Under the pieces are notes generated by a model. The model made no database searches and was not told the origin of the DNA. It was given only the letters and a program-made list of their open reading frames with translations. A program made the position numbers and the translations under genes. Source: a virus. From it: a DNA stretch of 64,000 bases. Position 1 is the stretch's first letter. The number at the start of each line of letters is the position of its first letter. Shown one piece after another: positions 2,389-20,473 of this stretch. Location: IMG/VR virus record IMGVR_UViG_3300027806_000003, positions 15,355 through 79,354 of that record; one strand, 5' to 3'.

Positions 2389-3471
2389 GATCTGTCCTTT
2401 CCTGCCGCGCTGCGCGGCCCCTTGGGTGCTCCCGGCGTTGCCGCCGCGCTGGCCGCGGTCCGCCCGCAGCCGCGTCAGCGCCGCCGTCATATCCGTCACA
2501 ACTTCATCAGCCAGCCCCGTGGCCACCGCTGCCGCACCGGCGTACCAGTGCTTGCCGCTCCAGCCCTGGGCGATCTCCACGCTCACGCCGCGGCCAGCGG
2601 CCACCGCCCGTGTGAACTGCTGGCCCATGGCGTCGATGTCTTCCTGGAGCGCCGCCCGCTGCGCATCGGTCAGCGGCTCGCGCCAGAGCTTCTTGATTTC
2701 GGCGCTGGCCACCGTCTGCGGCTTGATCCCCGCAATGGCCATCGCCTCAAAGTCCTCGTACCAGTGCAGCACCGTGCCGATGTTGCCGACCTCGGCATCG
2801 CTGGTGAGCATGAACAGCCCGGGCGTGCAGGCAGAGGCCAGGTAGAACGCGGCGCTCATGCACCAACCCGCGCACATCACGCCGATGGGCTTGAGATCGC
2901 GCAGAGCCCTGATCTTCTCGGCCAGCGGGTCACACCCTATCGCTTCGCCACCGGGCGAATCGGCCACCATCAGAATCTCGCCAATCCGGGGGTCTTCGAT
3001 CCCCGCCGTGATCGCCGCGGCGATGTCCTCGTACGCCGATGCAAACGCGTTTCCGTTGCTGTCGATCGCGTCCTCGACCTTGCGCACCAGCGGCCCGCTG
3101 AGCGGGATCACCAGCGTCGAGCCCTGCACGCTCGGCGCGGCCAGCGACCAGTACTCGCGTCCCGCGTAGGTGCTCAGGGCCTGCTTCTCGGGCGCGCTTG
3201 CGCCACCATCGTCGTGCCAGGCCGCCGGGCCAACAGCCGGTCCAGCAGCCGGGCCAGCATCCGCGCTCGCGTGATCAAGGCCGGCTCGTTTGCTCCGCAC
3301 AGACCGTCCAGCGTCTCGCATCATCGCGTTTAGGCGGATGCCGCCGCTGACATCGACCTCGCCAAGGGCGACCCGGCGCAGCATCGCCCGCGCGGCCATG
3401 TCAACGCTCGCCTCGAGCATCCACGGCTTATTCATCGCAGCCGCGGCACGGATTGTCCAGTGCATGTGCAT
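1816..3471 (-). CDS. S49-family prohead protease with C-terminal scaffold (lambda gpC/Nu3-like)
   Basis: DSPGG, CMSAAFYLAS and VGNIG S49 motifs; coiled-coil C-terminus. Confidence 0.9.
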   Translation of the reverse strand: MHMHWTIRAAAAMNKPWMLEASVDMAARAMLRRVALGEVDVSGGIRLNAMMRDAGRSVRSKRAGLDHASADAGPAAGPAVGPAAWHDDGGASAPEKQALSTYAGREYWSLAAPSVQGSTLVIPLSGPLVRKVEDAIDSNGNAFASAYEDIAAAITAGIEDPRIGEILMVADSPGGEAIGCDPLAEKIRALRDLKPIGVMCAGWCMSAAFYLASACTPGLFMLTSDAEVGNIGTVLHWYEDFEAMAIAGIKPQTVASAEIKKLWREPLTDAQRAALQEDIDAMGQQFTRAVAAGRGVSVEIAQGWSGKHWYAGAAAVATGLADEVVTDMTAALTRLRADRGQRGGNAGSTQGAAQRGRKGQIMAITLEGLKKLDGGEELIGQIQADAVKNAPAAAQDKPASIGELKSAFAGEAEFVLGQAERGATMSQAKAAFADVLGERLKAAQAKNAELQSKIDAGVKKAASTAAQGHGSPLSLAKDGQGPQGNASGGVGGDGHEHAKGTTERAEGLIRTAYAKKADFAAACAEAKKVDAAGYRLLGPAALTRLQQELIG

Positions 3472-3482
3472 TCGCTATTGGC

Positions 3483-3519
3483 CCTCTACCCATGTGCGCC
3501 CGTGGAGCATTTCTATGTC
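3483..3519 (-). promoter_or_regulatory. Conserved 37-bp motif, copy 1 (putative late promoter)
   Basis: 35/37 identical to 7140-7176; both copies sit immediately upstream of a late gene start. Confidence 0.55.
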
Positions 3520-3550
3520 CCACCGCCAAACCGGCCCCGGCATCAACAGA

Positions 3551-3627
3551 TCCTCCCCCGCCCAATGTCAGATTGGCCACCGGGGGAGGTGCCGCGGCCC
3601 AAATGTCATCCGGGCGGCGGAGGGGGT
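3551..3627. repeat. REP-like palindrome family B, copy 1 (others at about 7194-7255, 23759-23812, 25381-25459)
   Basis: CTCCCCCG..CGGGGGAG-GTGCCG...GGCGGAGGGGG double hairpin recurring four times. Confidence 0.75.
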
Positions 3628-3631
3628 GCCT

Positions 3632-3670
3632 TTATTTGGTCATTTGACCATTTGACCATTTGCCCATTTA
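3632..3670. repeat. Octamer tandem repeat (CATTTGAC)n; also at 8636-8667 and 27109-27140
   Basis: Directly visible tandem units. Confidence 0.9.
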
Positions 3671-5284
3671 CGCTGGCGGCGCTTCGCCGCCAGCGGCCTG
3701 CCCCGGCATCAGCACCGGCTCGATGCCCAGCTCGCGCTCGATCTGCTTCTCCTCGCTGCGTTCGGCGGCCACGCTGGCAAAGTCGCGCCCGCCCAGCTGC
3801 TCGGCCGCTTCGCGCTTGCTCATGAGGTTCGCGTTGATCGCCGCCACCAGCGCCGCCGTTTCCTTCTCCGGGTCAAACTGGCCGATGGGCAGGCCGATCC
3901 AACGCACGCCCATCGGGCTCAGCGCGTAGGCCAGTTCCTCTTGGCTCAGGTCGATCACGCCCGCCTGTGCCCACTCGCGCAGCCGCCACTGGTAGATCGG
4001 CGTGCACACGGTCCGCACAAAGTGCGCGAGCATCATCCGCCGCTGCCGCATCGCCATCATCACCGCCGTGCGTCCGGCGTAGGCGGTGCTCTGGCTGGCG
4101 TCCAAAAGCAGCACCTCCAGCGGCAGGCCCATGCGTGCCCCGAGCACCCGCAGGAGCATCCGCAGGCTCGCGTCAAACGACGCGGCCGGGTACGGGCTCT
4201 GCGGCATGCTCACGGTCACATCCTCGCCGACATAGTGCACGCTGCCGGCCGGAATCTCCGTTGTCTTGGGGCTTGTCGGGCTGGCCGCCGCCTTGGGCGC
4301 GCCGATGAGCTTGCTGGTCAGTTCCGGCCTGCGCGAAGAAACAAACGCCGCCAGCCGGCTGGTCAGGTCGCACGCGCGGATGTACGAGCTGAACATATCG
4401 TCGGCGCCGATGATCCGGTCGATCATCCCGCGCAGCGCGCTGATGCCGCGGTACTGGCTGATCTGATCCACGTTGGCCAGGAACACCGCGCCGCGTGCAT
4501 CCACGCGCGCGATGTCCACACCGCTGGGCGCTCCGTCCTTGAACACCGCCACGCGGTAGCGCAGCACGCGTCCGTCGCTATCGAGCTCCAGCCCCTCGGC
4601 GGGCAGATCCTGGCTCTGCGGCCTTGGCCCGTCTCGCACGAGCTGGGCCTCGACCATCTGCACCGTCCGGCCGACCATCGGATCGTCGCCCTGGGCCACC
4701 AGCACGCCCAGCACATCGCCGTCGAGGTACGCCGAGCGCAGCAGTTCCCGCTGCAGGCCGCCCCAGCCGTACCGCCGTGTGTGCTCGGCGCTCTCGGCCC
4801 ATTCGATGAACAGGTCTTCGATCATCCGGGCCTTTTCGGTCCGGCCCTGCGGCAGCACGGTCTGCGGGTACAGCCCATCACCCAGCAGGAAGTCCACCGC
4901 GCTGTCGATCAGCAGCGGCGCGAGCGTGGTGGTGCGGTAGGCCTGGCGTGCGGCCCGGGCCACGGCGCTCCTTCGCGTCTCGCGGGCGATGCGTCCGCCC
5001 GCGGCATTGATCGGCGGCGAATCCTTGCGACCGCTCGACAGATCCGCTTCGGTGTACGGTGCGGAGCCTCGGCCGGCCGAGCCGAACGACGCCGACGCGT
5101 TCATGGCCGCGCCCGGTGCGGCCCTGCGCCACTGCCTGACCGACTCAAGTTGCGCCCGCGCAAGAGCCGACCGCGCCTCCGCCTCGGCCTTGTCGGCTCG
5201 CAGGCTCGCCACGCTGGCATCCACGCGCGCGCGCGTGATCGTCGCCACCTTGCCGGTGGGCCTGTTGCTGGGCTTGCTGGCCAT
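3668..5284 (-). CDS. Portal protein, lambda family
   Basis: DGDV, LQMVEA-like, GLELDSDGR..Y, QYRGIS, PIYQW and DPEKE motifs. Start uncertain (5284 or 5377). Confidence 0.9.
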   Translation of the reverse strand: MASKPSNRPTGKVATITRARVDASVASLRADKAEAEARSALARAQLESVRQWRRAAPGAAMNASASFGSAGRGSAPYTEADLSSGRKDSPPINAAGGRIARETRRSAVARAARQAYRTTTLAPLLIDSAVDFLLGDGLYPQTVLPQGRTEKARMIEDLFIEWAESAEHTRRYGWGGLQRELLRSAYLDGDVLGVLVAQGDDPMVGRTVQMVEAQLVRDGPRPQSQDLPAEGLELDSDGRVLRYRVAVFKDGAPSGVDIARVDARGAVFLANVDQISQYRGISALRGMIDRIIGADDMFSSYIRACDLTSRLAAFVSSRRPELTSKLIGAPKAAASPTSPKTTEIPAGSVHYVGEDVTVSMPQSPYPAASFDASLRMLLRVLGARMGLPLEVLLLDASQSTAYAGRTAVMMAMRQRRMMLAHFVRTVCTPIYQWRLREWAQAGVIDLSQEELAYALSPMGVRWIGLPIGQFDPEKETAALVAAINANLMSKREAAEQLGGRDFASVAAERSEEKQIERELGIEPVLMPGQAAGGEAPPA

Positions 5285-5366
5285 ATCGCGTTCGTCCCTT
5301 TCCTGCGTTGCCCTTTGCTGCTCTGCCGCTTTGCCCTTTGCTGCTTTGCCGATTTCCCGCGGCCGC

Positions 5367-5888
5367 TCAGCCCTCAAGTCTGCGCAGTTCCGCCTCCAGC
5401 GCGTACCGCTCGGCCACCAGCGGCTGGAAGATCTCCCGCTCCTGCCGCTCGTATTCGCGGGTGATCTCCTGCGCCTCGGCCTCGAGCTCTTCGATCACAC
5501 GCTGGCGGCGAGAGTGGACCTCAGCCCGGCGCATCTTGATGTCGTCGAGCACCTTGACCGGCTGGCCGATCTGGTTCAGCCGCGTGCGGATCTGCCCCGC
5601 CCGCTCGGCCCGCGCACGCTCGGACCGCTCGTGCTCATCGGCATCGTGCGCATCGACCTCCGCGGCCGCATCCAGCTCAACATCGGTCTCAACATCCAGC
5701 TCGGTATCCTCCACCTCGGCACCGCTCGCACGCGCGCCCGCACCAGCATCAAACGGCGCGGTCTCATCCCCGGCCCCGGCGTCGAGCCCACCATCACCCA
5801 CCGGCGTCTCCGCCGAGCCGCTGCGGTTTGTCGTGCTCAGCGTCGAGGCCGCCGCCGCGTTCACGTCTTTATTGCCCTTGCGTGCCAT
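5367..5888 (-). CDS. Acidic/coiled-coil hypothetical late protein
   Basis: ATG with AAGGA RBS; contains the 61-bp copy of integrase sequence. Confidence 0.6.
   Translation of the reverse strand: MARKGNKDVNAAAASTLSTTNRSGSAETPVGDGGLDAGAGDETAPFDAGAGARASGAEVEDTELDVETDVELDAAAEVDAHDADEHERSERARAERAGQIRTRLNQIGQPVKVLDDIKMRRAEVHSRRQRVIEELEAEAQEITREYERQEREIFQPLVAERYALEAELRRLEG
5798..5858. repeat. 61-bp exact direct repeat of 16724-16784 (inside the integrase gene)
   Basis: CCACCGGCGTCTCCGCCGAGCCGCTGCGGTTTGTCGTGCTCAGCGTCGAGGCCGCCGCCGC is present at both loci. Confidence 0.95.
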
Positions 5889-5950
5889 GCTTGTTTCCTT
5901 TTTGCTGCTCTGCTGATTTGCTGCTCTGCTGCTTTGAGCTTCGAGCTTTG

Positions 5951-6193
5951 TCACACCACCACGTACGTCCCGCCCCCTCCGCCATTTCCATCACCGACCA
6001 CCGCCGCCAGCATGCGTTCTTCCTCGATAAGCATGTTCAGAAGGCTCGTCAGCGAACCGCTGGCCACGCTCATGTTCCCGCCGCTGACATCCGGCCCGAT
6101 CTTCTGCGTGACTTCGACGATGTGCAGCCGCAGCCGCGCCAGCCGCTCGGCATCGCTCGAGTACCCCCGCCAGTCCGCGTACTGCCACATCAT
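5951..6193 (-). CDS. Head completion protein (gpW-like)
   Basis: 80 aa, helix-hairpin-helix pattern, between terminase and portal; ATGA overlap. Confidence 0.5.
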   Translation of the reverse strand: MMWQYADWRGYSSDAERLARLRLHIVEVTQKIGPDVSGGNMSVASGSLTSLLNMLIEEERMLAAVVGDGNGGGGGTYVVV

Positions 6194-7137
6194 GCCGCCT
6201 CCTGTTCCGTCGCTGCGTCCGCCATCACCGCCGCCCCCCCCGCCGCCGCTCCTGTTCCGCTCCGCTCCTGCAGCGCCGCCGCCGCCCGCTGGCGGATCTC
6301 CAGAACCAGTCTTTCGGCCGCGGCCCGCAGCCGGGCCACGCTCATGGGGTCCATCGGCTCGGCGCTCTGGCCGCGATCGCCGGCAACCGGCGGCAGGCCG
6401 ATCTGTGCCAGGTCCGCCAGCCTCTGCGGCAGGCCGTCGATCGCGTGCACCAGCCCGGTGATCACCTCCTGCATCGCCGCCGCCGCCGCCGCACGGTCGA
6501 CCAGCTCGCCGCGCTTGGCCTTCATGGCCATGTCCTTGCTGCTGGCCTCGATCAGCGCCCGCAGGTTCTCCGCGTCGGCCCTGGTCACCCGGCCGATCAC
6601 TTCATTCAGCACGCCCGGGTCGCTGATCGATCGCCCGTTCAAGATCCGCATCAGGCTCAAGCCCTCGCCCTGCTCGGCCGCTTCCATGGCGGCCTCGCGC
6701 ACAGCCTGCCCCAGCGGCGACTGGTCAAAGGCCTGCCCCGGCTCACCGGCTGCGGTCGACCGACCACGGCCACCCCCGCGCCCATTCACACGCCCGGCCA
6801 CGCTCCCGGCTACGCCGGACGCACGCCGCACGCCCCGCACGTTCAGCCCGGCCTTGCGTCCGGCCCCGCCGCGAATCCCGCCGTGGTGCGCGGTCGACGC
6901 CTCCACCGCGTGCGCCTTGTTCGTCTTTGCCCAGGCCACGCACGCGGCCTGGTCGAACCACCTCTGCCCGCTGGCCACCGTGTGCGGCATGCCGTCGCGC
7001 ACGTAGTTCGTGATCGTCATGCGCGTCACGCCCAGCGCCTTGGCCAGCTTGCCCGCGCCGACCATTCCCGGCGGCGGCAACTCCGCCGCCCCCGGCAGCA
7101 GCAGCCCACCCGAGTTGTCGCCGGTTGCTTCGCCCAT
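6190..7137 (-). CDS. Terminase small subunit (Nu1-like)
   Basis: N-terminal wHTH LAKALGVTRMTITNYVRDGMP..FD..ACVAW and a GELVD motif. Confidence 0.75.
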   Translation of the reverse strand: MGEATGDNSGGLLLPGAAELPPPGMVGAGKLAKALGVTRMTITNYVRDGMPHTVASGQRWFDQAACVAWAKTNKAHAVEASTAHHGGIRGGAGRKAGLNVRGVRRASGVAGSVAGRVNGRGGGRGRSTAAGEPGQAFDQSPLGQAVREAAMEAAEQGEGLSLMRILNGRSISDPGVLNEVIGRVTRADAENLRALIEASSKDMAMKAKRGELVDRAAAAAAMQEVITGLVHAIDGLPQRLADLAQIGLPPVAGDRGQSAEPMDPMSVARLRAAAERLVLEIRQRAAAALQERSGTGAAAGGAAVMADAATEQEAA

Positions 7138-7139
7138 GG

Positions 7140-7176
7140 CCTCTACCCATGTGCGCCGGTGGTGCATTTCTATGTC
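7140..7176 (-). promoter_or_regulatory. Conserved 37-bp motif, copy 2 (putative late promoter)
   Basis: Near-identical to 3483-3519; ends 2 nt upstream of the terS ATG. Confidence 0.55.
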
Positions 7177-7261
7177 TCATCGCGCTCTTCGCACCTCCCC
7201 CGCTCGGCGGGGGAGGTGCCGAGTCCCAAGTGTCATTTGGGAGGCGGAGGGGGCGCCCGCC

Positions 7262-7336
7262 TTCAGCCCCAACGGGGCCGCGGCCTGCCCCCCAATAGCC
7301 ACGGGTGGAGCCCGCGCTTCCCGGGCGCAGCCCGTG
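7262..7336. repeat. REP-like palindrome family A (others at about 8495-8603, 9640-9738, 23826-23923, 25309-25363, 26444-26542)
   Basis: GCCCCnAnGGGGC hairpin, then GCCACGGGT...ACCCGTGG hairpin, often CTGCCCC..GGGGCAGAGGA; six copies in the same orientation. Confidence 0.85.
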
Positions 7337-7342
7337 AACGCC

Positions 7343-9622
7343 TCACCCACGCTCCTCCTGATACAGCTCCACCGCCATCTGCCGCGTGAACGTCCGCACC
7401 TCGTTTCTGTCCGCGATCGCGCAGGCATACACCTCGCAGTCCAGCAGGTGGTTGTCCTTCCGCCCCTCGCGCAGTTCCCACACCGCCATCGCGCGGCCGT
7501 ACCGGTCCGTCGCCACCACTTGCCGCTCGGCGGTCACCTGGTGCCAGTACCGGTCGTGATTGTCGCCCCTGCGGACCGTGCCCCCCGGCTCGGTTCGGTC
7601 GGCGGTGTACGCCGGCCACCACCACCGCTGCTTGTCGGCCTCGATGCTCAGCCTGTCTGAGCCATCCCGTGCCGCCGTCGGCGGCGCCGCGGCCATGTGG
7701 CCAACGATCATCGTTTTGTAGTAACTGCCACCAACCATCAGCAGCAGCCTCGGCGCAGCGCGCCCCGCCGCACCCCTGCCCGCCCCGCCGATCTGGCTCA
7801 TGCGGAAGTTCACAAGCCCCGGCCGTGATTCGCTCATGCCCTTGGCCGCCTGCGCCCCCGTCTGGTCGCACGCCGCGTACACCTCGCTGGTCCGGTCGCC
7901 CGAGTCCACGGCCAGATCAATGATCGGCAGGCCAACTCGCTCGATCATGCCCTCGGGCCGCTCAAGTGTGTACCGCAGCCCCTGCAGGCCCGCCAGTTCA
8001 TGCCCGTCGACCAAGGGGTACCGCCGGCTCTTGACCCGCTCGATCGCGCCGACCAGCGCGTGCCGATCGCCGGCCTCGAGCGCGCCGTAGTCGATCAGCC
8101 AACTCGACCGCCCCTCTGCGCCAAACCCGCGCACCACGTAGTAGATCCGGTCGGCCTGCACATCCACGCCCGCGAACAGCGCCAAACATCCGCGCGGCAC
8201 CGTCCCGCGTCGGTACCCGCCATCGGCCAGGCTCAGGCAGTGCGCCTTCATGCTCCCCGGCTCGATCGACCGCCCCACGGCCTGCGTCGCGCGGCCGAGC
8301 ATGCCCGCCCACCACTTGTCCGGCGGGTTCTTGCCGAGCTTGACGTAGTCGTGCACCAGGCTCGCCCACGTGGTCCACGGCGAATACATGCCGGAGATTG
8401 AGAACGACGCCACCCGCGTCCTTGGCCCCTCGCCCACGACCCCCGCCCGCTCCCCGCCCGCCTCCCTCCGCTCCCACGCAAACGCAAAGGCATCTTCGGC
8501 CCCGAAGGGGCCGAGGGATGTAGCCACGGGTGCAGCCCGCGCTTGGCGGGCAGAACCCGTGGAAGCCTCCGCATCCGAATCCTGCCCCGGAGGGGCAGAG
8601 GAAGCTTCATCGGACCCGACGCCTTCCCCTTCTCCCATTTGACCATTTGACCATTTGACCATTTGGCCCTTTTTGACCCACACCCCCCGCCGCATCATCG
8701 CCGCCTTGTACTTCTCATCGATCTCCGCCCCGCAGCACTCGCACACGTACACGCACGATTGCTCGGCGTCCAAGGGGTCAACGTCATCACGGTCTTTCCC
8801 CTCCCAGTCCAGTTGCTCGAAGGACAACTCGCGGTACTCGCCGCAGTGGGGGCAGGGCACGTGATACGTCCGCTGGTCCCCCTGCTTGTAGAGCCGATCG
8901 ATGCCCTGATCGGCGGCCCCCGGCGTCGACACGGCCATCCGCACCGCGGCGTCCTTGAAGGTCTTGGTCCGTTCGCACGCCAGTTCCCACGCGTCCTTGC
9001 TCCACTCCTCAACCTCATCACCGATCAGGTAGCGGATCGGCAGGCTCTTCAGGTCCGCATCGCTCCGCGTGCCGCGCAGAAAGACCGTGCTCTGGCCGAT
9101 GGTCAGGTCGGCGATGCGGGCTTCCTTGCCATCGAGAGCGCCCGCGTTCTTGAGTTTGTTCTTGATCCTGGGCGTGGCGCGAATCGCGGGGATGAGCCTC
9201 TTGCGGTTCTGCTCGCGTGCGAAGTCCGTCGACGGGTACACCACCATCGCCGGCCCCGGCGCGTTGTCGATGCACGCAAAGAGCACGTTGATCGCCGCTT
9301 CGGTCGCGCCGACCTGGGAGCACTTGATCACGACCACATCCGAGTACAGCCCGCTGGCGGCCGCGTCCATGATGTCCACCAGGTACGGCGTGACATCGTT
9401 CCGCCAGGGCCCCGGCCTGTGGCTCGACTCGGCCGCCACACCGCGGTGCCGCTCGGCCCACTGGCTCGGCGTCAGCCGCTCCTGCGGACGGATCACCCCG
9501 GCGGCCACGCTCAGCAGAAACGCGCGATCACCGCCATCGGCCACCGCCGCCCCCCCCGCACCAGCATCTACGCCGGACGCCACGACCGCCACCGCCGCCC
9601 CCGCCGAAGCCGCCGCGCTCAT
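7343..9622 (-). CDS. Terminase large subunit, GpA family
   Basis: TPYL, SQVGAT, GDEVE, STP, CPHCGE, CECCG, GVDVQ, VDSG and NHLLDCEVYA motifs. Confidence 0.95.
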   Translation of the reverse strand: MSAAASAGAAVAVVASGVDAGAGGAAVADGGDRAFLLSVAAGVIRPQERLTPSQWAERHRGVAAESSHRPGPWRNDVTPYLVDIMDAAASGLYSDVVVIKCSQVGATEAAINVLFACIDNAPGPAMVVYPSTDFAREQNRKRLIPAIRATPRIKNKLKNAGALDGKEARIADLTIGQSTVFLRGTRSDADLKSLPIRYLIGDEVEEWSKDAWELACERTKTFKDAAVRMAVSTPGAADQGIDRLYKQGDQRTYHVPCPHCGEYRELSFEQLDWEGKDRDDVDPLDAEQSCVYVCECCGAEIDEKYKAAMMRRGVWVKKGQMVKWSNGQMGEGEGVGSDEASSAPPGQDSDAEASTGSARQARAAPVATSLGPFGAEDAFAFAWERREAGGERAGVVGEGPRTRVASFSISGMYSPWTTWASLVHDYVKLGKNPPDKWWAGMLGRATQAVGRSIEPGSMKAHCLSLADGGYRRGTVPRGCLALFAGVDVQADRIYYVVRGFGAEGRSSWLIDYGALEAGDRHALVGAIERVKSRRYPLVDGHELAGLQGLRYTLERPEGMIERVGLPIIDLAVDSGDRTSEVYAACDQTGAQAAKGMSESRPGLVNFRMSQIGGAGRGAAGRAAPRLLLMVGGSYYKTMIVGHMAAAPPTAARDGSDRLSIEADKQRWWWPAYTADRTEPGGTVRRGDNHDRYWHQVTAERQVVATDRYGRAMAVWELREGRKDNHLLDCEVYACAIADRNEVRTFTRQMAVELYQEERG

Positions 9623-9969
9623 CGCACCACCTCCGCGACTTCGGCCCCAACGGGGCCGAGGGATGCAGCCACGGGTGGAGCGCAGCGCAACCCGTGGACC
9701 GCCCCCGACTCATCGCCCTGCCCCAAAGGGGCAGAGGAATCGGCCATCAACGTCCCGCCCTGAGCCCCCACGCATCCGCACGCCAAACCCGCAATCATCT
9801 TCCTGATCGTCCGCGGATCAATCGCGTGCCGCCTGGCCGCCGCCCGCGCGGTTTGGCCCTCGACGATCACCGCCCGCACCGCCTCAAACCGCGCCGCCGC
9901 CTCGGCCTTCTCCCCCTGCGTCCACCCCAGGCAGTACGCTGCCAGCCACTCTTCCGGCGGCATGTTCAT
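9619..9969 (-). CDS. HTH-like hypothetical protein with REP-derived C-terminus
   Basis: TARAAARRHAIDPRTIRK HTH-like segment; 4-bp overlaps on both sides. Confidence 0.55.
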   Translation of the reverse strand: MNMPPEEWLAAYCLGWTQGEKAEAAARFEAVRAVIVEGQTARAAARRHAIDPRTIRKMIAGLACGCVGAQGGTLMADSSAPLGQGDESGAVHGLRCAPPVAASLGPVGAEVAEVVR

Positions 9970-10670
9970 CCGTTACCCCCCGCGGCGTACGCCGCGATCA
10001 CTTCTTCGGCGCTCCGCCGATCATCCTCGATTCCGCGCTCGCGTTGCCGCAGCGTGGCCAGCACGCTGGCCTCATCGAACGCGCGAGCGCTCCGCACCCC
10101 GCGAGCCGCCGCGGCCGATGCGCCGCACGGCTGCCTGGCCAGCCAGTCCCGCACCTTGTCCATGGTCGACCGGCCCCGGGCCCACGGATCCAGCCGCACC
10201 ACATCCTCGCCGAGCTCCGCCGCCAGCATGCACTGGGCCGTGTGCAGGTCATCGGCCCGCGTGTCATCGCTGACCAGCTCGGCGTACTCGAGGCTCAGCC
10301 CGCCGCCGCGCACCCGCACGCGAACGTACCGCGTCTGGGCGCACGCGCGCGGGTACCGCCGCGGCCGCGAGCCCGGCAGTGGGGGCGTGCTCACGCGGCC
10401 GAACCGATCCACGCCGCACGCCGGCACCAGGCCCGGGATGCCGAAAGCCCCAGCGCGATCCCCACCACAAAATCGTGTTGATCCCTCGCCCATGATCCCC
10501 ATCACCGCGTGGGCGCGGTCGGTCGCATCGGCCGTGCTGATCATCTCGCACGCGCTCTCATCGGCGCAGACCAGCACCTCGGCCCTGTTCGGGCACAGCT
10601 GATCCTGGTGCGATTGCTCCTGCTCGCCCCGCCACGCCTTGGGTTTTCTTCCAGCCTTCGCCGCGCCCAT
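9966..10670 (-). CDS. Hypothetical protein
   Basis: Co-oriented, ATGA overlap, GGAGG RBS. Confidence 0.55.
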   Translation of the reverse strand: MGAAKAGRKPKAWRGEQEQSHQDQLCPNRAEVLVCADESACEMISTADATDRAHAVMGIMGEGSTRFCGGDRAGAFGIPGLVPACGVDRFGRVSTPPLPGSRPRRYPRACAQTRYVRVRVRGGGLSLEYAELVSDDTRADDLHTAQCMLAAELGEDVVRLDPWARGRSTMDKVRDWLARQPCGASAAAARGVRSARAFDEASVLATLRQRERGIEDDRRSAEEVIAAYAAGGNG

Positions 10671-10687
10671 CGGTCACCTCCGCACAC

Positions 10688-10762
10688 GCCATCCACGCCC
10701 ATCCGCTCATCCGCCCATCCGCTCAGGCCGTCATCCGCCCAGCCGCCCATCCGCTCACCCGC
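10688..10762. repeat. Degenerate octamer tandem repeat (CATCCGCC/T)n
   Basis: Visible intergenic tandem units. Confidence 0.7.
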
Positions 10763-11003
10763 TTATCGCCGTTCGCTCGTGCGCCTCGGCGATCGCCAGC
10801 GCCGCCTCAAAGCTCGCCGCGCTGTGCTCGCTCATCAGCCCAGGCTCCGAGCACGAGACCTTGAACAACCCACCAGGCCTCCGCGGCGCGATGATCGTGA
10901 AGTGAATCGGCGAGTCCGGCCTGCTCAGCCCGCTGGCCGCCACCCACACCACCGCCCGCCCACGCCCCGCCTCTTGCACAAACTCCAACGCCCGCTCGCT
11001 CAC
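10755..11003 (-). CDS. Small hypothetical protein
   Basis: GTG start after AAGGAG RBS with an AT-richer upstream region. Confidence 0.5.
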   Translation of the reverse strand: MSERALEFVQEAGRGRAVVWVAASGLSRPDSPIHFTIIAPRRPGGLFKVSCSEPGLMSEHSAASFEAALAIAEAHERTAISG

Positions 11004-11052
11004 GCCCTTGCTCCTTGTATAGTCATTGCATCGGCATGACAACCGATTATCT

Positions 11053-11724
11053 TTACCCGATCGCCGCGCGGGCGTCGATCGCCTCGCGTTCCCATTCCTT
11101 CTCCGGCTCAACGCGCCGCACCACGATCGGCCGCCCCATCCGGTCCGGGTGCAACTCGGTCACCACGCCAGGCCACGCATCGCGCCGCCGCAGGCAGATG
11201 TGCACCAGTTGCCGCGCCGAGCCCTGCACCACGTCGACCGCGACCACGCTCTCTCCCACGTTTCGCACGTGCGAGAGCACCTGCAGCATCGCGGCCATCG
11301 TCGCCGGGCCCAGCGGCTTGCCGTTGCGGCTGGCCCGCTGATCGGTCGACGCCGCCGCCGCCCATCGCTCGGCCGCCAGCGCCCCCGGCCCGGCGCGGTA
11401 GGCCGCGATCGCCGCGCTCCGCTCGGCCACGCTCGGCCGCCGGCCCCGACCACCGCCACCATCACCGCCGCCCGCGCCCTCCTCCAGCAGCGGCCCGACC
11501 TTCTCCAGCAGCATGTTGCCGATTCGTGCGCAGTCGCCCGGCGTCAGGTCGCCCAGCTCGCACATCGAGGCCAGCGTCGGCCCCACACACCGAACGAACA
11601 GATCCACCGGCATCTTGGCCAGCTCGCCCACCTCCGCCGCCACATCACGCCTATCGCCGCCACCCTCGCGGCCCCGCGGCATCGCGTCGATGATCATGGC
11701 CACCTCGCCGCTCCTCATCTTCAT
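11053..11724 (-). CDS. Hypothetical protein
   Basis: Co-oriented, ATGA overlap. Confidence 0.55.
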   Translation of the reverse strand: MKMRSGEVAMIIDAMPRGREGGGDRRDVAAEVGELAKMPVDLFVRCVGPTLASMCELGDLTPGDCARIGNMLLEKVGPLLEEGAGGGDGGGGRGRRPSVAERSAAIAAYRAGPGALAAERWAAAASTDQRASRNGKPLGPATMAAMLQVLSHVRNVGESVVAVDVVQGSARQLVHICLRRRDAWPGVVTELHPDRMGRPIVVRRVEPEKEWEREAIDARAAIG

Positions 11725-12380
11725 CGCTCACCCCCTTCTTCCTGCCCGCCATCAGCGCGGGAGTCATCGACCACGCGAGCAGTCCCCACCACCGGCCGCG
11801 GCGCACGCTCGCACTCGCACACATACGGCTCGCCGCAGGCACACCCCGGCCAGCTCCGCGCCGCCACCGCGGCCTCAACCGGCACCTCGCGCCCGCCGCA
11901 CGGACAGCACCCGCGCGAGCCCGCCAAGCCCGCACCCCGGCCCGCACCACAACCCACACCACCGCCCGCACCCCGGCGCGCCCGCTTGGCCCGCACATAC
12001 GGCCGCAGCCTTCGCATCTCCACGATTCGCCGCGAGCGCCGCACATCAGCCGCCACATCGCGCCCAACGGCCACGAGCAGCCCGACCGCCACCCCCAGCA
12101 GCGTCACCAGCAGCCCGATCTGCACCAATCCCGTGGAATACTCAACAACCCACCACGCCGCCGCATGGCCGAGCATCCACCCCAGCCACGCCCCGAGCAC
12201 CACCAGCACCACCGCCAGCACACCCACCAGCCCCCGAGGCACCCCGCGAACAACCGCCAGCGCCGCCCGCGCCACCGCCAGCGCCAGCGCCGCCCGCGAC
12301 ACAACCCACCCCGCCGCCGCGGCCACACTCCTGCCCAGCCACCAAGCCCGCCCCCAACCATCAGCCCCGGCAAAACGCAT
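11721..12380 (-). CDS. Membrane protein with C-terminal Cys cluster
   Basis: Two to three hydrophobic segments; CCPCG..CACG..CEC. Confidence 0.5.
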   Translation of the reverse strand: MRFAGADGWGRAWWLGRSVAAAAGWVVSRAALALAVARAALAVVRGVPRGLVGVLAVVLVVLGAWLGWMLGHAAAWWVVEYSTGLVQIGLLVTLLGVAVGLLVAVGRDVAADVRRSRRIVEMRRLRPYVRAKRARRGAGGGVGCGAGRGAGLAGSRGCCPCGGREVPVEAAVAARSWPGCACGEPYVCECERAPRPVVGTARVVDDSRADGGQEEGGER

Positions 12381-12910
12381 ATGACCGCCCGAGCCTCATC
12401 GGCTCGGAGCGGTGTGCAGCCGCTCCCTTGGTGTTGGTGCGACGATGATATGCCCGCACCCCCGCCAATGCAACAATCCACACCCCCATTCCACCAGGCC
12501 GCGATCGGGATGCACGGGTTCGAACGGGTTCCAGCCTAGAGCGAGCGCCAAGAGCAAATATCACCCAAGCATTTCGATATTGCCACAAAGGCCAACCATG
12601 GCCCGCGCACCGGTTCACGCTCGGCCATCCCCCCGCACCCCACGCCCGGATGCTCGGCCAATCCGTTTCACGCCACCCCCAACCCGTTCACCCCATCAAA
12701 CCCCACCACCAACCCCATCCAATCCACCCCAACCCCACCTCCACTCCACCCCAAGCGGCCTAAATCAACCCCACCGCCCCCATCCATCCCAAAAACGGGA
12801 CGCCTTCGGTACTGCGGGCCACGTAAGGGCTCCGGTAGTACCGACGTGGGGGGGGCCTCAGAGCACCTCAGAACGCCGATTTCTCTGCCTCATGGGGTGC
12901 GGGGCGACGA

Positions 12911-15748
12911 TCAGAACACCGGCACGCCGTCGCCCTGCTGTTCAGGCTGAGCGCCGTAGCCAATGGTGAACTCCGCGGGCCTGCGTGCCAGACCAAGATA
13001 TGCCGGCACTCGCTCGCTATTGATCGTGTTGCGCTGCACCCGCCGGACCGACGGCGCTGCGACCAGCAGTTTGCGGCCGAAGATGTTGCGAGCCAGCATC
13101 TTCTTCTCATCGATTTTTGTGTGATTGCACCAGCGCATGTACTCGGTGTACACCTCGTCCGTGGCAACCCACGAATCAGGCTCACGCACAAACCCAAAGC
13201 GGCTGTCTTCGAGGAAGTCCAGCACGTGCGACTGCTGCCGCCGAAGATCGTCGGCCATCTCCTGGCCGTGCTCGCTCATGGCCCACGGGCTCCCCGACGT
13301 ACGCAGTCTCCGAAGGTGATACAGCGCATAGAGCGCAATGCCCGTGCCCTCGCCGCGGATGCCCGCCTTGATCGACGGGTCGGCCTTGCCCACAAACGAC
13401 TGCGAGAAGGGGATCACAACCTGCCGCCTGGCCAGTGCGCCCGAGTTGTCGGGCAGCGTGGCCGGCTCGTTGTAACTGATCAGAATCTGAGCCGCAATCC
13501 GCACCTGCTGCGCCTCTGAGTAGAGCCTTCGCACCGTCAGCATGTCGCCGCCGCTCAGCTTCTTGAGCCCCTCCATCGCCGCCGCGGCGTCCACCTTGCC
13601 CAGGCTCGCGTCGTGCAGGATCACCGCACGCTTGCCCACCATCTTGGTCAGGCCGCGATCGTCGGCGAAGTCGCCAAGGCTCGCGGCGCACACAGCCTCC
13701 TCGCCGATCATCGAAGTCACCGCCTCAAACGCCGACGACTTGCCGCTGCCCGGCGGCCCGATCAGCAGGAAGATCCGCTCGTGGCTCACATCGGCCGTCA
13801 GGCAGAGTGCGAACATGCCGCCTAGACAGTTGCCCCAGTTGGCGTCCTCGGCGGGCGCGACACTGTTGAGCCACCTGGAGAAGCACGGAGCCAGCCGCTC
13901 AACCTCCGCCATCCACACGGCCGGGCGCTCGGCCTCGGGCGCGGCCTCGATGCGGTCGACGGCCTCAGCCGGAAACGCGTATGGCAGCACCTGCTCGCTG
14001 AACCACCGAGGCGTATGCGGCCGCATGATCAGTTCCCCACGTGCCCACGCTTCCACGTCCACCAGCGCATCGGCGAACGCGATCACCGAGTCCGCACGCC
14101 ACATACCCTGATCTTCGGCCGTCCCCCGTGCGCCCAAGTCACCCCACACCGGCTGCCCCGCCGCGTCAAAGGTTGTCGGTGCCCAGCACGGCACCGACAC
14201 ATCGGGTTCGACGCGCACGATGCACTCGCTCGCCAGCGCCTGCACAACCTCCGTCGTGGTTTTCGGCCCGGGGTTCATCGGCGCGGGCCCGTACGTGTCG
14301 CCCTGCTTTTTCATGACCTGGTAGCGCTGCAGGAGCTGCTGCGTCTCCGTGGTCAAGTCCTCATCGGTCTTTCGCACGTACGCGTAGCCGCCGCCGCGCC
14401 GCTTCTCCCACGAGTACCACTGCCCGCCGAACCGCACGCGGTGCCACCTCTGCCCCTCGCGCTCGCCGGTTGGGTGGTACATCGGCCAGTCCATCAGCAG
14501 CCGCCGCGCCCTCGGCAGAGCCCCATCGGGCATCACGTCGGCAATATCCGCCCCGCCCGCAGCGCCCGCGCCGATGGTGTAGAGCGTCCGCTCGGCGCTG
14601 GCCGGCTCGCTGCGCTGCTCGGCCGCCGCACGCTCGAGGTACGTCATCGAACCCTTGCCCAGAATCGCCTCGCGCACCACCTCGGCGCCCGCACGCACGT
14701 ACACATCGAGCCAGTCCAGGCCCTTGATCGTGCAGCCGCCCTCACCAAAGACCTCTGGCACGTGGTCCGAGCCCGGCATGGCCAGCGTCACCGTCAGCCA
14801 CGGACAGTCGGCTCGCAAACGCTTGGCCAGGTCGGCGCTGGCGTCGGGCCCAGCGGCGTTGCCCTGCTCGTTGCGCTTGTCCCGGTCAACCGCGATCACC
14901 ACGCGGCTCAGCGGCCCCGGCCTGCCGAAGAGCTCGCCGGGGAGCTGGAGCTGGCGCACGCCGTTGGCGCTGATCGCGGCCCACACACCAACGCCCGAGC
15001 CATGGCCAACGCGGCACGCCGCGGCGATCGCCAGCGCGGTCTCCACGCCCTCGGCGATCACCAGCGTGCCGCCCTCGGCGGGCTTGAAGAGCCGGCAGGC
15101 CGCACCGGCCATAACGCCCATGCTGCGCTTGGCGGCGGCCCCTCCAAGGTCGGCCTTGCCGCCATCGGGGCCAAGGAAGATCCGCTGCAGGCCCACCACG
15201 CTCCGCGGGTCGGCCCGCACGCACGCGCACAAGATCGCGGGCCCTTCGTGCTCTTTGTTCACCTCACCGAGATACGCCTTCGTCTTGGCCACCAGCCGCA
15301 GCGACTGGGGCGTCTCGCCCAGGTCGACCAGCGCGATACCCCGCCGCGCGATGTACTGGCGTATGTCGGCGTGCTTCGGCGTGCCCTGACCCCAGAGCCT
15401 CTTAGCCGTGTCGATCTTCCGCTGCTCGGCCAGTTCCTCTTCGGCCTTGATTCTCGCCAGTTCGATCGGCCCGAGCGTGCGAACGCTCGCCGATGCGCCA
15501 TCATCGGGCACAAAGATGTAGTCGCCCTCCCCGTACGGCTGACCACCGGGGTTGATCATGCGGTACCCGGTGATGTTCATGCCCCCGCTGGAGGCGGCGG
15601 TGCCGCCCTCGCCGGTGACAAAGCAGTGCACGGTTCCGTCGGGCCACGTGCCCTTCTTGCCGGGGGTTGGTCCATCGGTCCGGCAGCAGCGTGAGGAACC
15701 GCCGCAGATCGGGCAGGGCCGCTTTTTCCCAAACTCTTTCCAAGCCAT
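12911..15748 (-). CDS. Primase-helicase (Zn ribbon + TOPRIM + D5/P4-type SF3 helicase)
   Basis: CPICGG, AEGVETAL, DRD TOPRIM motif, GPPGSGKS Walker A, LKKLSGGD and N..P....D.SGALARR. Confidence 0.92.
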   Translation of the reverse strand: MAWKEFGKKRPCPICGGSSRCCRTDGPTPGKKGTWPDGTVHCFVTGEGGTAASSGGMNITGYRMINPGGQPYGEGDYIFVPDDGASASVRTLGPIELARIKAEEELAEQRKIDTAKRLWGQGTPKHADIRQYIARRGIALVDLGETPQSLRLVAKTKAYLGEVNKEHEGPAILCACVRADPRSVVGLQRIFLGPDGGKADLGGAAAKRSMGVMAGAACRLFKPAEGGTLVIAEGVETALAIAAACRVGHGSGVGVWAAISANGVRQLQLPGELFGRPGPLSRVVIAVDRDKRNEQGNAAGPDASADLAKRLRADCPWLTVTLAMPGSDHVPEVFGEGGCTIKGLDWLDVYVRAGAEVVREAILGKGSMTYLERAAAEQRSEPASAERTLYTIGAGAAGGADIADVMPDGALPRARRLLMDWPMYHPTGEREGQRWHRVRFGGQWYSWEKRRGGGYAYVRKTDEDLTTETQQLLQRYQVMKKQGDTYGPAPMNPGPKTTTEVVQALASECIVRVEPDVSVPCWAPTTFDAAGQPVWGDLGARGTAEDQGMWRADSVIAFADALVDVEAWARGELIMRPHTPRWFSEQVLPYAFPAEAVDRIEAAPEAERPAVWMAEVERLAPCFSRWLNSVAPAEDANWGNCLGGMFALCLTADVSHERIFLLIGPPGSGKSSAFEAVTSMIGEEAVCAASLGDFADDRGLTKMVGKRAVILHDASLGKVDAAAAMEGLKKLSGGDMLTVRRLYSEAQQVRIAAQILISYNEPATLPDNSGALARRQVVIPFSQSFVGKADPSIKAGIRGEGTGIALYALYHLRRLRTSGSPWAMSEHGQEMADDLRRQQSHVLDFLEDSRFGFVREPDSWVATDEVYTEYMRWCNHTKIDEKKMLARNIFGRKLLVAAPSVRRVQRNTINSERVPAYLGLARRPAEFTIGYGAQPEQQGDGVPVF

Positions 15749-15773
15749 CCATGACCTCCGAGCAGACGTAGAA

Positions 15774-15951
15774 GCGCACCACCGGCCGCAGGTGGTGCGC
15801 CTTCAAGTTTCACAGATCAAACCCGCAACACGACCCCGCTGTTAACCGGCAGGTTATAGGTTCGAGTCCTATTCGGGGAGTTCAAAAGAGCCTTGTTTTC
15901 CCGCACGAAACGCGCACCACCGCGCACCACGCAAAAACCACCGCGCACCAC
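15774..15951. promoter_or_regulatory. attP of phage 1 with integrase arm-type repeats GCGCACCAC
   Basis: Copies at 15774-82, 15792-15800 (inverted), 15912-20, 15922-30 and 15943-51 flank the tRNA-derived core on both sides. Confidence 0.75.
15838..15880 (+). other. att core: 3' half of tRNA-Asn(GTT)
   Basis: CT-GTT-AA loop, CCGGC, T-arm ATAGG-TTCGAGT-CCTAT and acceptor strand TCGGGGA-G; no D-arm or 5' acceptor strand. Confidence 0.88.
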
Positions 15952-15996
15952 CTTCCCGACCCGCACAGGCCCCTCGGCCCCGTGTACGCTGGCCCC

Positions 15997-17361
15997 ATGC
16001 CCCGCCCTCTGCCCATGATGCGAAAGCACGCCCGCGGCATGTGGACCGTGCGGATCGACGGCATCGACCACTACCTCGGCCTGGACCGCACCGCTGCCGA
16101 GGCCCAATACGCCCAGCTCATCGCCGAAGTCGCCGCCGCCCGCGCCGACGAGGCCGAGGCGATCGCCGCGGCCCACGCCGCCGCCCCTGCCGGCAGCACG
16201 CGCCGCGAGCCGACGATCGCCCAGGTCATCACCGCGTACATCACGCAGCGCACCGCCGAGCGTGGCCGCGGCACGGCCCGCTACGACCGCACCAGCCTGC
16301 GCCGCCTGGCCAGCACTTTTCCCAAGCTTCCGCTCAGCCGTCTCTCGGCCCCGCTGGTGGCCGCCATGGCCGCCGACGCCCAGCAGTCGGGCCTTGCCCC
16401 CCGCACGGTCTCGCACGAACTGACGGCCATCAAGGGCCTCATGCGCTGGGCCGCGCTGAACTACCCGCACATCCGCCTGGCCTGGAACCGTGACGCCCTG
16501 CCCCGCGTCCGCGTGCCGCGCAGCCCCCGGCGCTACCAGCCCGTGGCGTACATCGCAAAGTACATCCTCGCGCACGAGGCCTACGACCCCCGCATCGCCC
16601 CGTGGCTTCGGCTGCAGTTCCTGGCCGCCCTCCGCCCGATCGAAACAACCCGCATCATCCACGGCCAGTACGAGTTTCACCGCCCCGAGCTCGGCGAGTA
16701 TGTCCTGGCCATCGACAACAAAACCACCGGCGTCTCCGCCGAGCCGCTGCGGTTTGTCGTGCTCAGCGTCGAGGCCGCCGCCGCCCTCGCGGCCGCCACG
16801 GCCGAGCCTCCGCCCTGGAGCTGCCCTCAGCCGGGCGAGCCGGCCTCCAACGCCTCGGGTGCCGATCAGGTCTTCCGCCGCGCCTGGCGTGGCCAGCACA
16901 CCAAGAGCACCACGCTCATCGAGGCCCTGAGCGTCCGCCGCCCGCGTCAGTCTGGCGTCGGCCCGCCGCCGGGCTTCCCGCGTCACTTCCTGCGTCACTC
17001 GGCGTATCAGGCTCTTCTCGACGCCCTGCCCGAGCAGCAGAGCACGGCCAAGATGCTCGCCGGCCACGTCCAGCCCGGGGCCTGGAGCGCCTACGCCGAT
17101 GCTCCGTGGCACCGCTGGCGCGATCAGATCAGCAGTGCCTTGACGCTCACCGCGCACGAGTCAGCCCTCCTTGCCGATCCGGCCTTCGCCGCCGTGCTCG
17201 AGAAGATCCGCGCCGAGAGTCCCGTGCGTGCCAAGCTGGCCCTGGGCCTGCCCGCCAGCCACCGCGGCATGCTCAAGGGCCGCAGGCTCGGCCCCCGTCA
17301 GCGTGCCCTTGAGTCCCCGTCCGGCGACACCGGCTCGGCGACGGTCGACGGCGGCCGCTGA
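15997..17361 (+). CDS. int: Tyrosine integrase
   Basis: R (LRPIE), K (NKTT), HxLRH, AGH and Y; N-terminal arm-binding W.VRIDG.DHYLG; adjacent to att. Confidence 0.9.
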   Translation: MPRPLPMMRKHARGMWTVRIDGIDHYLGLDRTAAEAQYAQLIAEVAAARADEAEAIAAAHAAAPAGSTRREPTIAQVITAYITQRTAERGRGTARYDRTSLRRLASTFPKLPLSRLSAPLVAAMAADAQQSGLAPRTVSHELTAIKGLMRWAALNYPHIRLAWNRDALPRVRVPRSPRRYQPVAYIAKYILAHEAYDPRIAPWLRLQFLAALRPIETTRIIHGQYEFHRPELGEYVLAIDNKTTGVSAEPLRFVVLSVEAAAALAAATAEPPPWSCPQPGEPASNASGADQVFRRAWRGQHTKSTTLIEALSVRRPRQSGVGPPPGFPRHFLRHSAYQALLDALPEQQSTAKMLAGHVQPGAWSAYADAPWHRWRDQISSALTLTAHESALLADPAFAAVLEKIRAESPVRAKLALGLPASHRGMLKGRRLGPRQRALESPSGDTGSATVDGGR

Positions 17362-17544
17362 TCGTTCCCGCTCGAGCCTGGCCCGTGCGGCGATGGACAA
17401 CACACGGGGTGCGGGGCTCATGTACTTCTCGAGCCCAAGCCGCCGGGCCAGGAGCCGCGTCTGCGTGACCGGCCCGCACGTCACGGCCAGTTCCGCGGGC
17501 CGCATGCGGCCGACCAGATCCAAGCACTTTTCGGTGTGATTCAC
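17161..17544 (-). CDS. Hypothetical protein overlapping the int 3' end in antisense
   Basis: GTGA coupling to the upstream gene, GGAGG RBS. Confidence 0.45.
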   Translation of the reverse strand: MNHTEKCLDLVGRMRPAELAVTCGPVTQTRLLARRLGLEKYMSPAPRVLSIAARARLERERSAAAVDRRRAGVAGRGLKGTLTGAEPAALEHAAVAGGQAQGQLGTHGTLGADLLEHGGEGRIGKEG

Positions 17545-17951
17545 GCCGCACCTCCCGCCATCATCTCGCGCACCTGTCCCTCAACCTTGCCAACGATCTC
17601 CAGCGCCTGCCGCCGCGCTTGCCGGTTGCGATCGCTGCCCCTGGCCTCATCGGCTCCCGCCTCTTGCCTGGCCAGTTCGATCATCTCCGGCATTCTGATG
17701 ACCGAGCTATGCCCGGTCCCGTGCGGCCGCACCCGATCGGCAACCTCCGGCCACGAGAGCCGCGACAACGTGCGCAGCAGGTACGCCATCGCCCACCGCG
17801 CTGCCAGCACCTGCGGCATGCGGCCGATGCCGCGAATCTCGCCGATCGGCACACCGCTGGCGAACACCACCATCAGCACAACGGCATCCGGCTCGGCACG
17901 CCAAAGCCCCCTGGGCACCAGATGCGAACTCAGCGACTGGGCAACGCTCAC
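17541..17951 (-). CDS. DnaA C-terminal (domain IV)-like HTH protein
   Basis: AARWAMAYLLRTLSRLSWPEVA...GHSSVI; GTG start overlaps the methylase stop. Confidence 0.7.
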   Translation of the reverse strand: MSVAQSLSSHLVPRGLWRAEPDAVVLMVVFASGVPIGEIRGIGRMPQVLAARWAMAYLLRTLSRLSWPEVADRVRPHGTGHSSVIRMPEMIELARQEAGADEARGSDRNRQARRQALEIVGKVEGQVREMMAGGAA

Positions 17952-19792
17952 GCCACACCTCCCACCCGCCCCGCATCGACTCCCGCCGCCACGCGCGCCC
18001 CTACGCGCGGCAGGTTCGCCCGCACCAGCGCCGCCGCCTGCACGGGCGACACGGCGTTGCCGATCAGCCGCACGGCCTCTCGCTGCGTGGCCGGCCAGAT
18101 GTACGTTTCGGGGAACCCCATCGCCGCCGCCAGCTCGCGCGGCTTGAGCATGCGAAACAGGATGTCGACCATCGGCCGCCGCACAACCAGCCCCGGCTGA
18201 TTCGCATCGTGCAGGCTCACGTACACCAGCCCATCGGCATCGGCCACCGCCACGCCCAGCCGCACCAGGAGCCCGGCCACGGCCAGCGCCCGCCGCCGCA
18301 TCTCCGGGCTCATCGTCAACGTCTGCTCGCCAACCGCCGCCGCGACGATGCCATGGCGATCGTGCGTCGTCACGGTCCCCAGCGGCTCGAGCACATCGCG
18401 CCCGCCGCTCTCGGCCCCGTAGAACGCCAGCGCCACCGGGCACACCAGCCCACTCTGTCCTCCGGTGGTAACGGTCGGCAGCGGCTGCTCCATCGTGCCG
18501 CCGGTGTGCCCCGTGGTGTTGTGCATGATCACCGGCATCGCCACCGCGCGATGGTCTCGCGTCAGCACAGTGCCCATTGGCTCCGACGCCGGAACCGCTC
18601 GACACGTCGGCCCTCCGGCAGAGAGCACCATCGGGCACACCAGCCCCTGGTGCATCCCGCCCGCGGCGATCGTCGCCATGGGCTCTTGCACATCGCGGCC
18701 CTGCCCGTTGCGCCGCAGCACGCCGAGCACCGGCGTGACCACGGCCAAGTCCTGCCGCGTGGTCTGGGTGGGCATCGGCCGCAGCACATCGGCCACATGC
18801 CACCCCCCGCCGGTCTGCGTCACGCGGAGGCAGAACGGCCGCGGCGAGTTGATGACGTACCGCCTGATCCCTTCGCCGATCCGCGCGAGCGTCTTGTCCG
18901 CGAGCGGCCTTTCCCGCTCGAAGATGCTCCGCCCGAGGTCGGTCCAGTCGATGACATCCGCCGCGCAGCGGGCATCGGCGGCCTTGCCCCGCGCAGCGGA
19001 TGCTTCCGGCCACGCCGGAGCGTGGCCATCTCTGCGTGCGATCACGTACAACCGCTTCCTTCGGCACGCAGCACCGAAGTCCGCGGCATCCATCACCCGC
19101 CACTCAACCTTGTACCCCAGCCTCCGCAGCATCGCCGCCCACCGCCTGAACGTCTGGCCCTTTCGCCCGGGCACGGGCTCGAGCACCGTGCGTCCCTGCG
19201 CATCGCGCACCGCGCGGCCGTGTTCATCGGTGCGCGCCCGCGTCGGTCCCCACTCAAGGAACTCCGGCACGTTCTCGACCATGATGATCCGCGGCCTGTG
19301 CCGCTCATCGAGCTCGCGTGCCCACTTGATCACCACCCACGCCAGGCTCCGCACGCGGCCCGATACCGGCGCGGCCCCTCGCGCCCGCGAGAAGTGCCGG
19401 CAGTCGGGAGAAGCCCAGAGCACGCCGACCGGCCGCGGCTTTCCGTCAGCCCCGCGGATGACGCTGCCCGGTGCCTCGGCCCAGACATCACCGAGCCGGT
19501 GGTTCGTGCGCGGGTGGTTGCGTGCGTGCGTCAGCACGGCCACTTCGGAGTGGTTCACGCACTCGTGCACCAGCAGCCCGGCATCTTCCATGCCCTGCGT
19601 CGCCCCACCGCCGCCGGCAAAGAGATCAACGTTGATCTCCCCGGGCAGGGGTCCGCCGCAGACCGACTCGGCCAGGCTCAACCTCGCCGCCGATTCAAAG
19701 TCCAGCATGTCCATCATGTCCGCAGGGCTGACCGTCACGATTGCTTCTCCCGCTGTCCACCCCGGTCGCACCCAACCCCCATCCGCCCGCAC
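17948..19792 (-). CDS. C5 cytosine DNA methyltransferase
   Basis: DLFAGGGG, SPDC, ENV, RKR and IGNAV motifs; start uncertain. Confidence 0.93.
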   Translation of the reverse strand: MRADGGWVRPGWTAGEAIVTVSPADMMDMLDFESAARLSLAESVCGGPLPGEINVDLFAGGGGATQGMEDAGLLVHECVNHSEVAVLTHARNHPRTNHRLGDVWAEAPGSVIRGADGKPRPVGVLWASPDCRHFSRARGAAPVSGRVRSLAWVVIKWARELDERHRPRIIMVENVPEFLEWGPTRARTDEHGRAVRDAQGRTVLEPVPGRKGQTFRRWAAMLRRLGYKVEWRVMDAADFGAACRRKRLYVIARRDGHAPAWPEASAARGKAADARCAADVIDWTDLGRSIFERERPLADKTLARIGEGIRRYVINSPRPFCLRVTQTGGGWHVADVLRPMPTQTTRQDLAVVTPVLGVLRRNGQGRDVQEPMATIAAGGMHQGLVCPMVLSAGGPTCRAVPASEPMGTVLTRDHRAVAMPVIMHNTTGHTGGTMEQPLPTVTTGGQSGLVCPVALAFYGAESGGRDVLEPLGTVTTHDRHGIVAAAVGEQTLTMSPEMRRRALAVAGLLVRLGVAVADADGLVYVSLHDANQPGLVVRRPMVDILFRMLKPRELAAAMGFPETYIWPATQREAVRLIGNAVSPVQAAALVRANLPRVGARVAAGVDAGRVGGVA

Positions 19793-20420: not shown

Positions 20421-20473
20421 GCTCCCTTGACTTTGCTGCTTTGCCCTTTGCTGCTTTGCCCTTTTCTCAGCGT

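Follow-up and report, generated by a model that had tools for sequence, protein, structure and literature searches.

This analysis concerns a 64,000-nucleotide stretch of DNA from a temperate phage (positions 15355–79354 of the 79,354-bp IMG/VR virus record IMGVR_UViG_3300027806_000003, hereafter the window; the record is complete according to CheckV), in which the same 61 bp occur twice, once within the integrase gene (int) and once within a small minus-strand gene of the head module, referred to below as the late gene. Positions 5798–5858 and 16724–16784 are identical over exactly 61 bp, with a mismatch at both flanks, as established by direct reading and by script. A pattern search tolerating up to three mismatches returned just these two sites, and none in 100 shuffles, and the whole 79,354-bp record likewise holds two copies, which confirms the exact identity that a first-pass annotation of the window had reported. 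The 61-mer is the longest perfect repeat of a genome in which dispersed short repeats are unusually abundant, followed by a 46-bp intergenic element and a 44-bp terminal overlap. Both copies lie on the plus strand, and are thus direct repeats, 10,926 bp apart. Copy 2 (16724–16784), read on the plus strand, encodes TGVSAEPLRFVVLSVEAAA, corresponding to int residues about 237–257, just past the catalytic Lys236. Copy 1 (5798–5858) is read on the minus strand as AAAASTLSTTNRSGSAETPV, codons 11–30 of the late gene, and the frame of that gene runs through it intact, as had also been claimed. An open antisense frame is in itself unremarkable, since, in this genome, a given frame contains no stop codon in 75.5% of all 61-mers, and in 40% all three frames are open. 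A template/variable pair of a diversity-generating retroelement was rejected, as the copies are identical and lack A-specific changes, and a terminator-like hairpin on the minus strand of the repeat (16742–16727), with a 6-bp stem and a T-run in the int context only, was unconvincing.

The int gene (16015–17361, plus strand) encodes a divergent lambda-Int-like tyrosine integrase of 448 amino acids (P0003) which matches phrog_1 (integrase). A full HMMER search returned 165 homologs, and in an alignment of 54 of these, R207, K236, R246, R327, H351 and Y360 are invariant or nearly so; the Arg-I, Lys, His-x-x-Arg-II, His/Trp and Tyr positions are present in P0003 in the right order, and the HFLRH motif was read directly. 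A direct search gave no match of P0003 itself to PF00589, and this family is matched by 35 of the 54 aligned homologs, so that family membership rests on transitive homology and fold. An AlphaFold2 (AF2) model built on the 54-sequence alignment has a mean predicted local distance difference test score (pLDDT) of 84.8 (the single-sequence model, with a pLDDT of 36, was of no use), and its best Foldseek matches, at a probability of 1.00, are lambda Int (1z1b, 1z1g, 5j0n) and Tn1549 Int. A PDB sequence search with int found nothing. As judged from its catalytic residues and its modelled fold, the product of 16015–17361 is a true lambda-Int-like tyrosine recombinase. Within it, the 61-mer begins just past K236 and spans the motif KT...RxVVLSxEA, including the invariant R246, in the 54 integrases, and AF2 models this segment confidently as a strand plus a helix. 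In P0006, an int protein encoded in a MAG, three residues within the repeat segment are different. Because it covers a conserved family motif and confidently modelled structure, the 61-mer is native to int, in agreement with the first-pass annotation. Next to the gene lies the attP region (15774–15952, plus strand), read directly as a tRNA-Asn(GTT)-like 3' half (about 15830–15895) flanked by GCGCACCACC arm-type repeats, which form an inverted pair on its left and three direct copies on its right. Neither Rfam nor tRNA scans of the window gave a hit. This attP is in the unintegrated configuration, and the 61-bp repeat was rejected as an att site, given this conventional tRNA-Asn attP beside int.

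The recipient is a gene of 173 codons (P0010; 5367–5888, minus strand, ATG at 5888) lying between an open reading frame (ORF) in the gpW position and the portal gene. The product begins with a short basic segment, continues through a long, acidic middle of low complexity and ends in a C-terminal coiled coil; protein-family searches gave no family match. Codons 11–30, which make up the patch, are rich in Ala, Ser and Thr, and this region of the N-terminus appears to be disordered. The exact 173-residue protein, crossing both edges of copy 1, is found on 41 contigs (NCBI, JGI/IMG, Logan, ENA and gem), and the exact full-length integrase is recorded on 36. These counts bear on the suspicion that copy 1 is not in the real phage and was made by a chimeric join, a suspicion that may arise from the metagenomic origin of the assembly and from its 44-bp terminal repeat, which resembles a circular overlap. 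However, a one-off chimeric assembly is unlikely given an identical protein across both edges on so many contigs; the record of full-length int and the coherent gene contexts on either side of each copy also count against an assembly artefact, which we regard as extremely improbable.

The first-pass annotation had proposed that related phages be checked for the late-gene copy, and only one close relative was available for this comparison. This is L040, a 22,322-bp contig binned in a Gemmatimonas metagenome-assembled genome (MAG) and found via a TerL search of genome contigs. It is 98.3% identical to the window over 5966–17953, and about 96% identical over 2140–3543. Since the 81-bp attP core (15820–15900) is 100% identical in L040 and in the unintegrated configuration, the L040 contig would likewise be a free phage contig binned into the MAG. 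It carries the 61-mer once, in int and 100% identical, and the 61-mer is found nowhere else in its 5.1-Mb MAG; the late-gene copy is absent. The duplication is therefore lineage-specific and young. The cassette at 3543–5966, consisting of the portal gene, the 173-codon gene and its leader, is present in L040 as a diverged allele, with about 67–70% nucleotide identity in the portal gene and 34% amino acid identity (E 1e-15) between P0010 and its L040 counterpart P0013 (159 residues). P0013 shares the ATG, the ribosome-binding site and the C-terminal coiled-coil half with P0010. At the position of the patch, P0013 carries unrelated sequence of almost equal extent, and the alignment of the two proteins needs a gap of just 4 residues. 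This near-equal length indicates that the patch replaced sequence instead of adding length, and the replacement of a similar-length stretch accounts for the intact frame despite a 61-bp segment. Copy 1 falls within the swapped cassette, 108 bp from its right edge.

With regard to the cassette itself, its left edge abuts a dispersed intergenic repeat (an 81-bp element at 3546–3626), and an octamer-rich leader (5901–5941) ends about 25 bp short of its right edge. The position of both edges at repeated linkers suggests that modules may be exchanged there.

Wider searches yielded no further close relative. Nothing was found in viral contigs with int, the late protein or the exact 61-mer, nor in metagenome contigs with a degenerate 61-mer pattern, and megablast against GenBank phages gave no match. 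TerL searches of viral and metagenome contigs returned relatives with mostly 25–40% identity, the maximum being about 44%, over short segments. The int gene was not found in 400 sampled genomes of the phylum to which the MAG of L040 (G001) belongs, and word-based protein searches with int, P0010 and P0013 retrieved their own clusters only.

The 61-bp repeat is real, and we assign a probability of roughly 0.6 to the explanation that copy 1 is young and lineage-specific, a templated patch of int DNA placed where a head-module gene tolerates change. The direction of copying, from int to the late gene, can be regarded as settled on the conserved motif, the modelled strand and helix, and the presence of the 61-mer in L040 in int only. 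A 61-bp stretch of the phage's own int would have been copied while the DNA was being replicated or recombined, probably through template switching or microhomology-primed repair. It would have landed, inverted with respect to gene sense, where the small head-module gene encodes a variable and apparently disordered part of the N-terminus, taking the place of a similarly long stretch, with no net gain in length. It may persist since that region seems to tolerate almost any open sequence rich in Ala, Ser and Thr. The two copies differ at no position, which is counted in favor of a young patch. Two passive consequences would follow, neither of them apparently selected: the late mRNA and the int mRNA would share 61 nt of perfect complementarity, and the direct repeats would offer a substrate for homologous recombination, with loss of the 10.9-kb terminase-primase-attP block and defective products. 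Several points weigh against the explanation by a templated patch. There is a single close relative, in which the whole cassette is a different allele, and hence the pre-insertion state of the present allele is not seen. The repeat-bearing lineage is far more widely recorded than the other (41 contigs vs 1), so that the copy may confer a benefit. Finally, 61 is not a multiple of 3, and as a simple insertion cannot give an intact frame, a replacement or a compensating change has to be assumed.

The consequences of recombination between the copies were followed by naming the layout A-R-B-R-C, and building the deletion product A-R-C and the circle in silico by script. Segment B (5859–16723) comprises the late-gene leader and first 10 codons, the gpW-position ORF, the terS-like gene, terL, small ORFs, the primase gene, attP and the N-terminal 236 codons of int. 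As the first-pass annotation had expected, recombination would remove 10.9 kb carrying the terS-like gene, terL, primase and attP, and one recorded protein exactly matches the junction that this would leave. This protein (P0012, 168 residues, from a 798-bp ENA contig) is encoded by A-R-C, with a GTG start 15 nt into C, and is encoded nowhere in the intact window. Two other proteins correspond to the gene calls expected on A-R-C: P0011 (144 residues), which begins with the final codon of the patch, and P0008, a 200-residue C-terminal fragment of int with a GTG start within the repeat. The record of each consists of one JGI contig of 26,976 bp, and we infer that both come from the same contig. 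The A-R-C junction may have arisen by true deletion, or the assembler may have jumped across the repeat where this exceeded k; as a third possibility, P0012 could stem from a variant in which the patch is longer.

These proteins would also be expected if the repeats were a programmed recombination site, excising the 10.9-kb interval as a satellite or plasmid-like replicon, or switching the phage between two genome forms, as P0012 is encoded only by the A-R-C junction, and P0011 and P0008 start inside the repeat as A-R-C predicts. However, an assembler can also join A to C across the 61-bp repeat if k is smaller than the repeat or if coverage is low, and the products themselves are defective. 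On the in silico circle, int stops 18 codons past the repeat, without Arg-II, His and Tyr, and the small gene runs into nonsense after 45 codons. The other product lacks terminase and primase, and in it int is without its N-terminal half and the small gene without its start. In addition, int is accompanied by a conventional attP with arm repeats and tRNA-Asn identity, and no circle-junction protein was seen in the int cluster. A programmed site is thus very unlikely. The defects of both products argue against a satellite and for a fragile site, and the resemblance of the circle to a satellite, suggested by the first-pass annotation, did not hold up. A self-contained P4-like or PICI-like (phage-inducible chromosomal island) satellite has a functional integrase and an att site, whereas here int is truncated and the repeat is not an att site; a satellite lacking its helper's packaging genes is likewise rejected, as the interval contains the only terL detected in the genome, along with its terS-like gene.

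Complementarity between the two transcripts follows from geometry, the copies being direct DNA repeats and the genes lying on opposite strands. That a late mRNA would carry 61 nt complementary to int mRNA, as the first-pass annotation had deduced, is therefore predicted from the layout of the genes. The calculated energy of the 61-nt duplex is −153 kcal/mol, and those of self-folding of the two 61-mers are −26 and −31 kcal/mol. From this complementarity, it had been proposed that trans-antisense control evolved, in which the late mRNA pairs with int mRNA, a double-stranded RNA nuclease cuts the duplex, and int is silenced during lytic growth; conversely, int mRNA could dampen the late gene. 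The stability of the duplex would suit such a role, as would the fact that the repeat-bearing lineage is the commonly recorded one. Nevertheless, evolved silencing is unsupported by the comparison with the only close relative, as L040 has the identical int segment without the late-gene copy. Because int opposes nearly all genes, and the 180-bp gap that follows the convergent upstream genes showed no terminator-like site, ordinary read-through could already give cis-antisense RNA on int. Moreover, both 61-mers are self-structured, the late copy lies in translated codons 11–30, and there would be little obvious benefit in silencing int so shortly before lysis. We therefore consider evolved trans-antisense control unlikely. 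That the complementarity would act as a working lytic/lysogenic lock, with the late head-operon mRNA titrating int mRNA or triggering its cleavage, or the reverse, and that the copy swept the lineage by this means, is in our view quite improbable. Membership in the P4 CI and P1 c4-type trans-antisense regulators is not supported either, since L040, the single close relative, has the target only, where a conserved, co-varying repeat would be expected. Taken together, the earlier structural reading of the repeat was right, and its regulatory and satellite readings are not supported.

The surrounding genome has a G+C content of 68% and is read almost entirely on the minus strand, int being almost the sole plus-strand gene. 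From left to right, the minus strand of the window encodes a major head protein, a scaffold-like protein and an S49 protease, and then a lambda-family portal protein (3668–5377). Beyond the late gene lie the 80-residue ORF in the gpW position (5951–6193), the terS-like gene (6190–7167), a gpA-type terL (7343–9622) followed by small ORFs, and a Toprim/DUF5906 primase gene (12911–15748), all on the minus strand. On the 3' side of int, minus-strand genes resume, among them a C5 methylase gene. Several other repeats were observed in this genome. The 46-bp intergenic element is exactly repeated at 7210–7255 and 25415–25460, with a third, diverged copy (85%) at 3583–3628. A 1.3-kb internal duplication of 94.9% identity links window positions 27146–28443 to genome positions 3291–4593, to the left of the window, and covers most of a 306-residue ORF (27592–28512, minus strand, without a PHROG match) together with the region downstream of it. 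Octamer-rich leaders of the GCAGCAAA type occur at 5298–5356, 5885–5941 and 20431–20466, preceding the portal gene, the 173-codon gene and another minus-strand gene, and each ends in an AGGAAA-like ribosome-binding site. Within terL, a stretch of about 270 nt (8407–8677) between the ATPase and nuclease domains of TerL contains a copy of a 65-nt dispersed element (8494–8558) and a ATTTGACC octamer array (8621–8679), in frame; L040, 98% identical, aligns straight through this stretch.

If copy 1 is only a patch, it provides a clean, dated example of how phage genomes gain short internal duplications, and of how antisense coding DNA can be accommodated in a disordered N-terminus. The repeat would then also create a fragile site at which the packaging and replication block can be deleted, and thus serves as a practical warning for metagenome assemblies and for calls of viral completeness. 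If, on the other hand, the antisense proposal were true, a trans-antisense regulator would have been born by the copying of a piece of its target gene into a late gene, which would be a simple route to a new regulatory RNA interaction.

Comparison with known systems places these features as follows. Like lambda integrase (1z1b, 1z1g, 5j0n), P0003 has the lambda-Int fold with an N-terminal arm-type domain and the R-K-H-R-H-Y set, and its gene adjoins an attP with arm repeats; unlike it, P0003 shows only about 15–17% identity to lambda Int, lacks a direct PF00589 match, and carries an insert of 60 residues, modelled at low confidence, between the sheet and Arg-II. SSV1-type integrases carry attP inside the int ORF, and the present int gene likewise contains a repeat competent for recombination, at which exchange would split the coding sequence. 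In contrast to SSV1, the partner copy is in the same phage genome and not in a host tRNA gene, a separate conventional attP exists, and the exchange would be homologous and not catalyzed by the integrase. The P4 CI RNA, with seqA and seqC, and the P1/P7 c4 RNA are small processed RNAs with targets near ribosome-binding sites, and are conserved across relatives. In those systems, as would be predicted here, short sequences repeated in one phage genome give transcripts able to pair in trans, but the present phage has no dedicated small RNA, the target lies in the middle of an ORF, and the nearest relative lacks the copy. Illegitimate recombination in mosaic phage genomes gives rise to short ectopic duplications and templated patches. 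What sets the present case apart from these is that the DNA was donated by the conserved core of the int catalytic domain, that the copy is read and translated antisense in another gene, and that the two copies bracket the terminase-primase block; it resembles them in being a short, exact, dispersed self-copy in a tolerant region near a module boundary, with copy 1 absent from the nearest relative.

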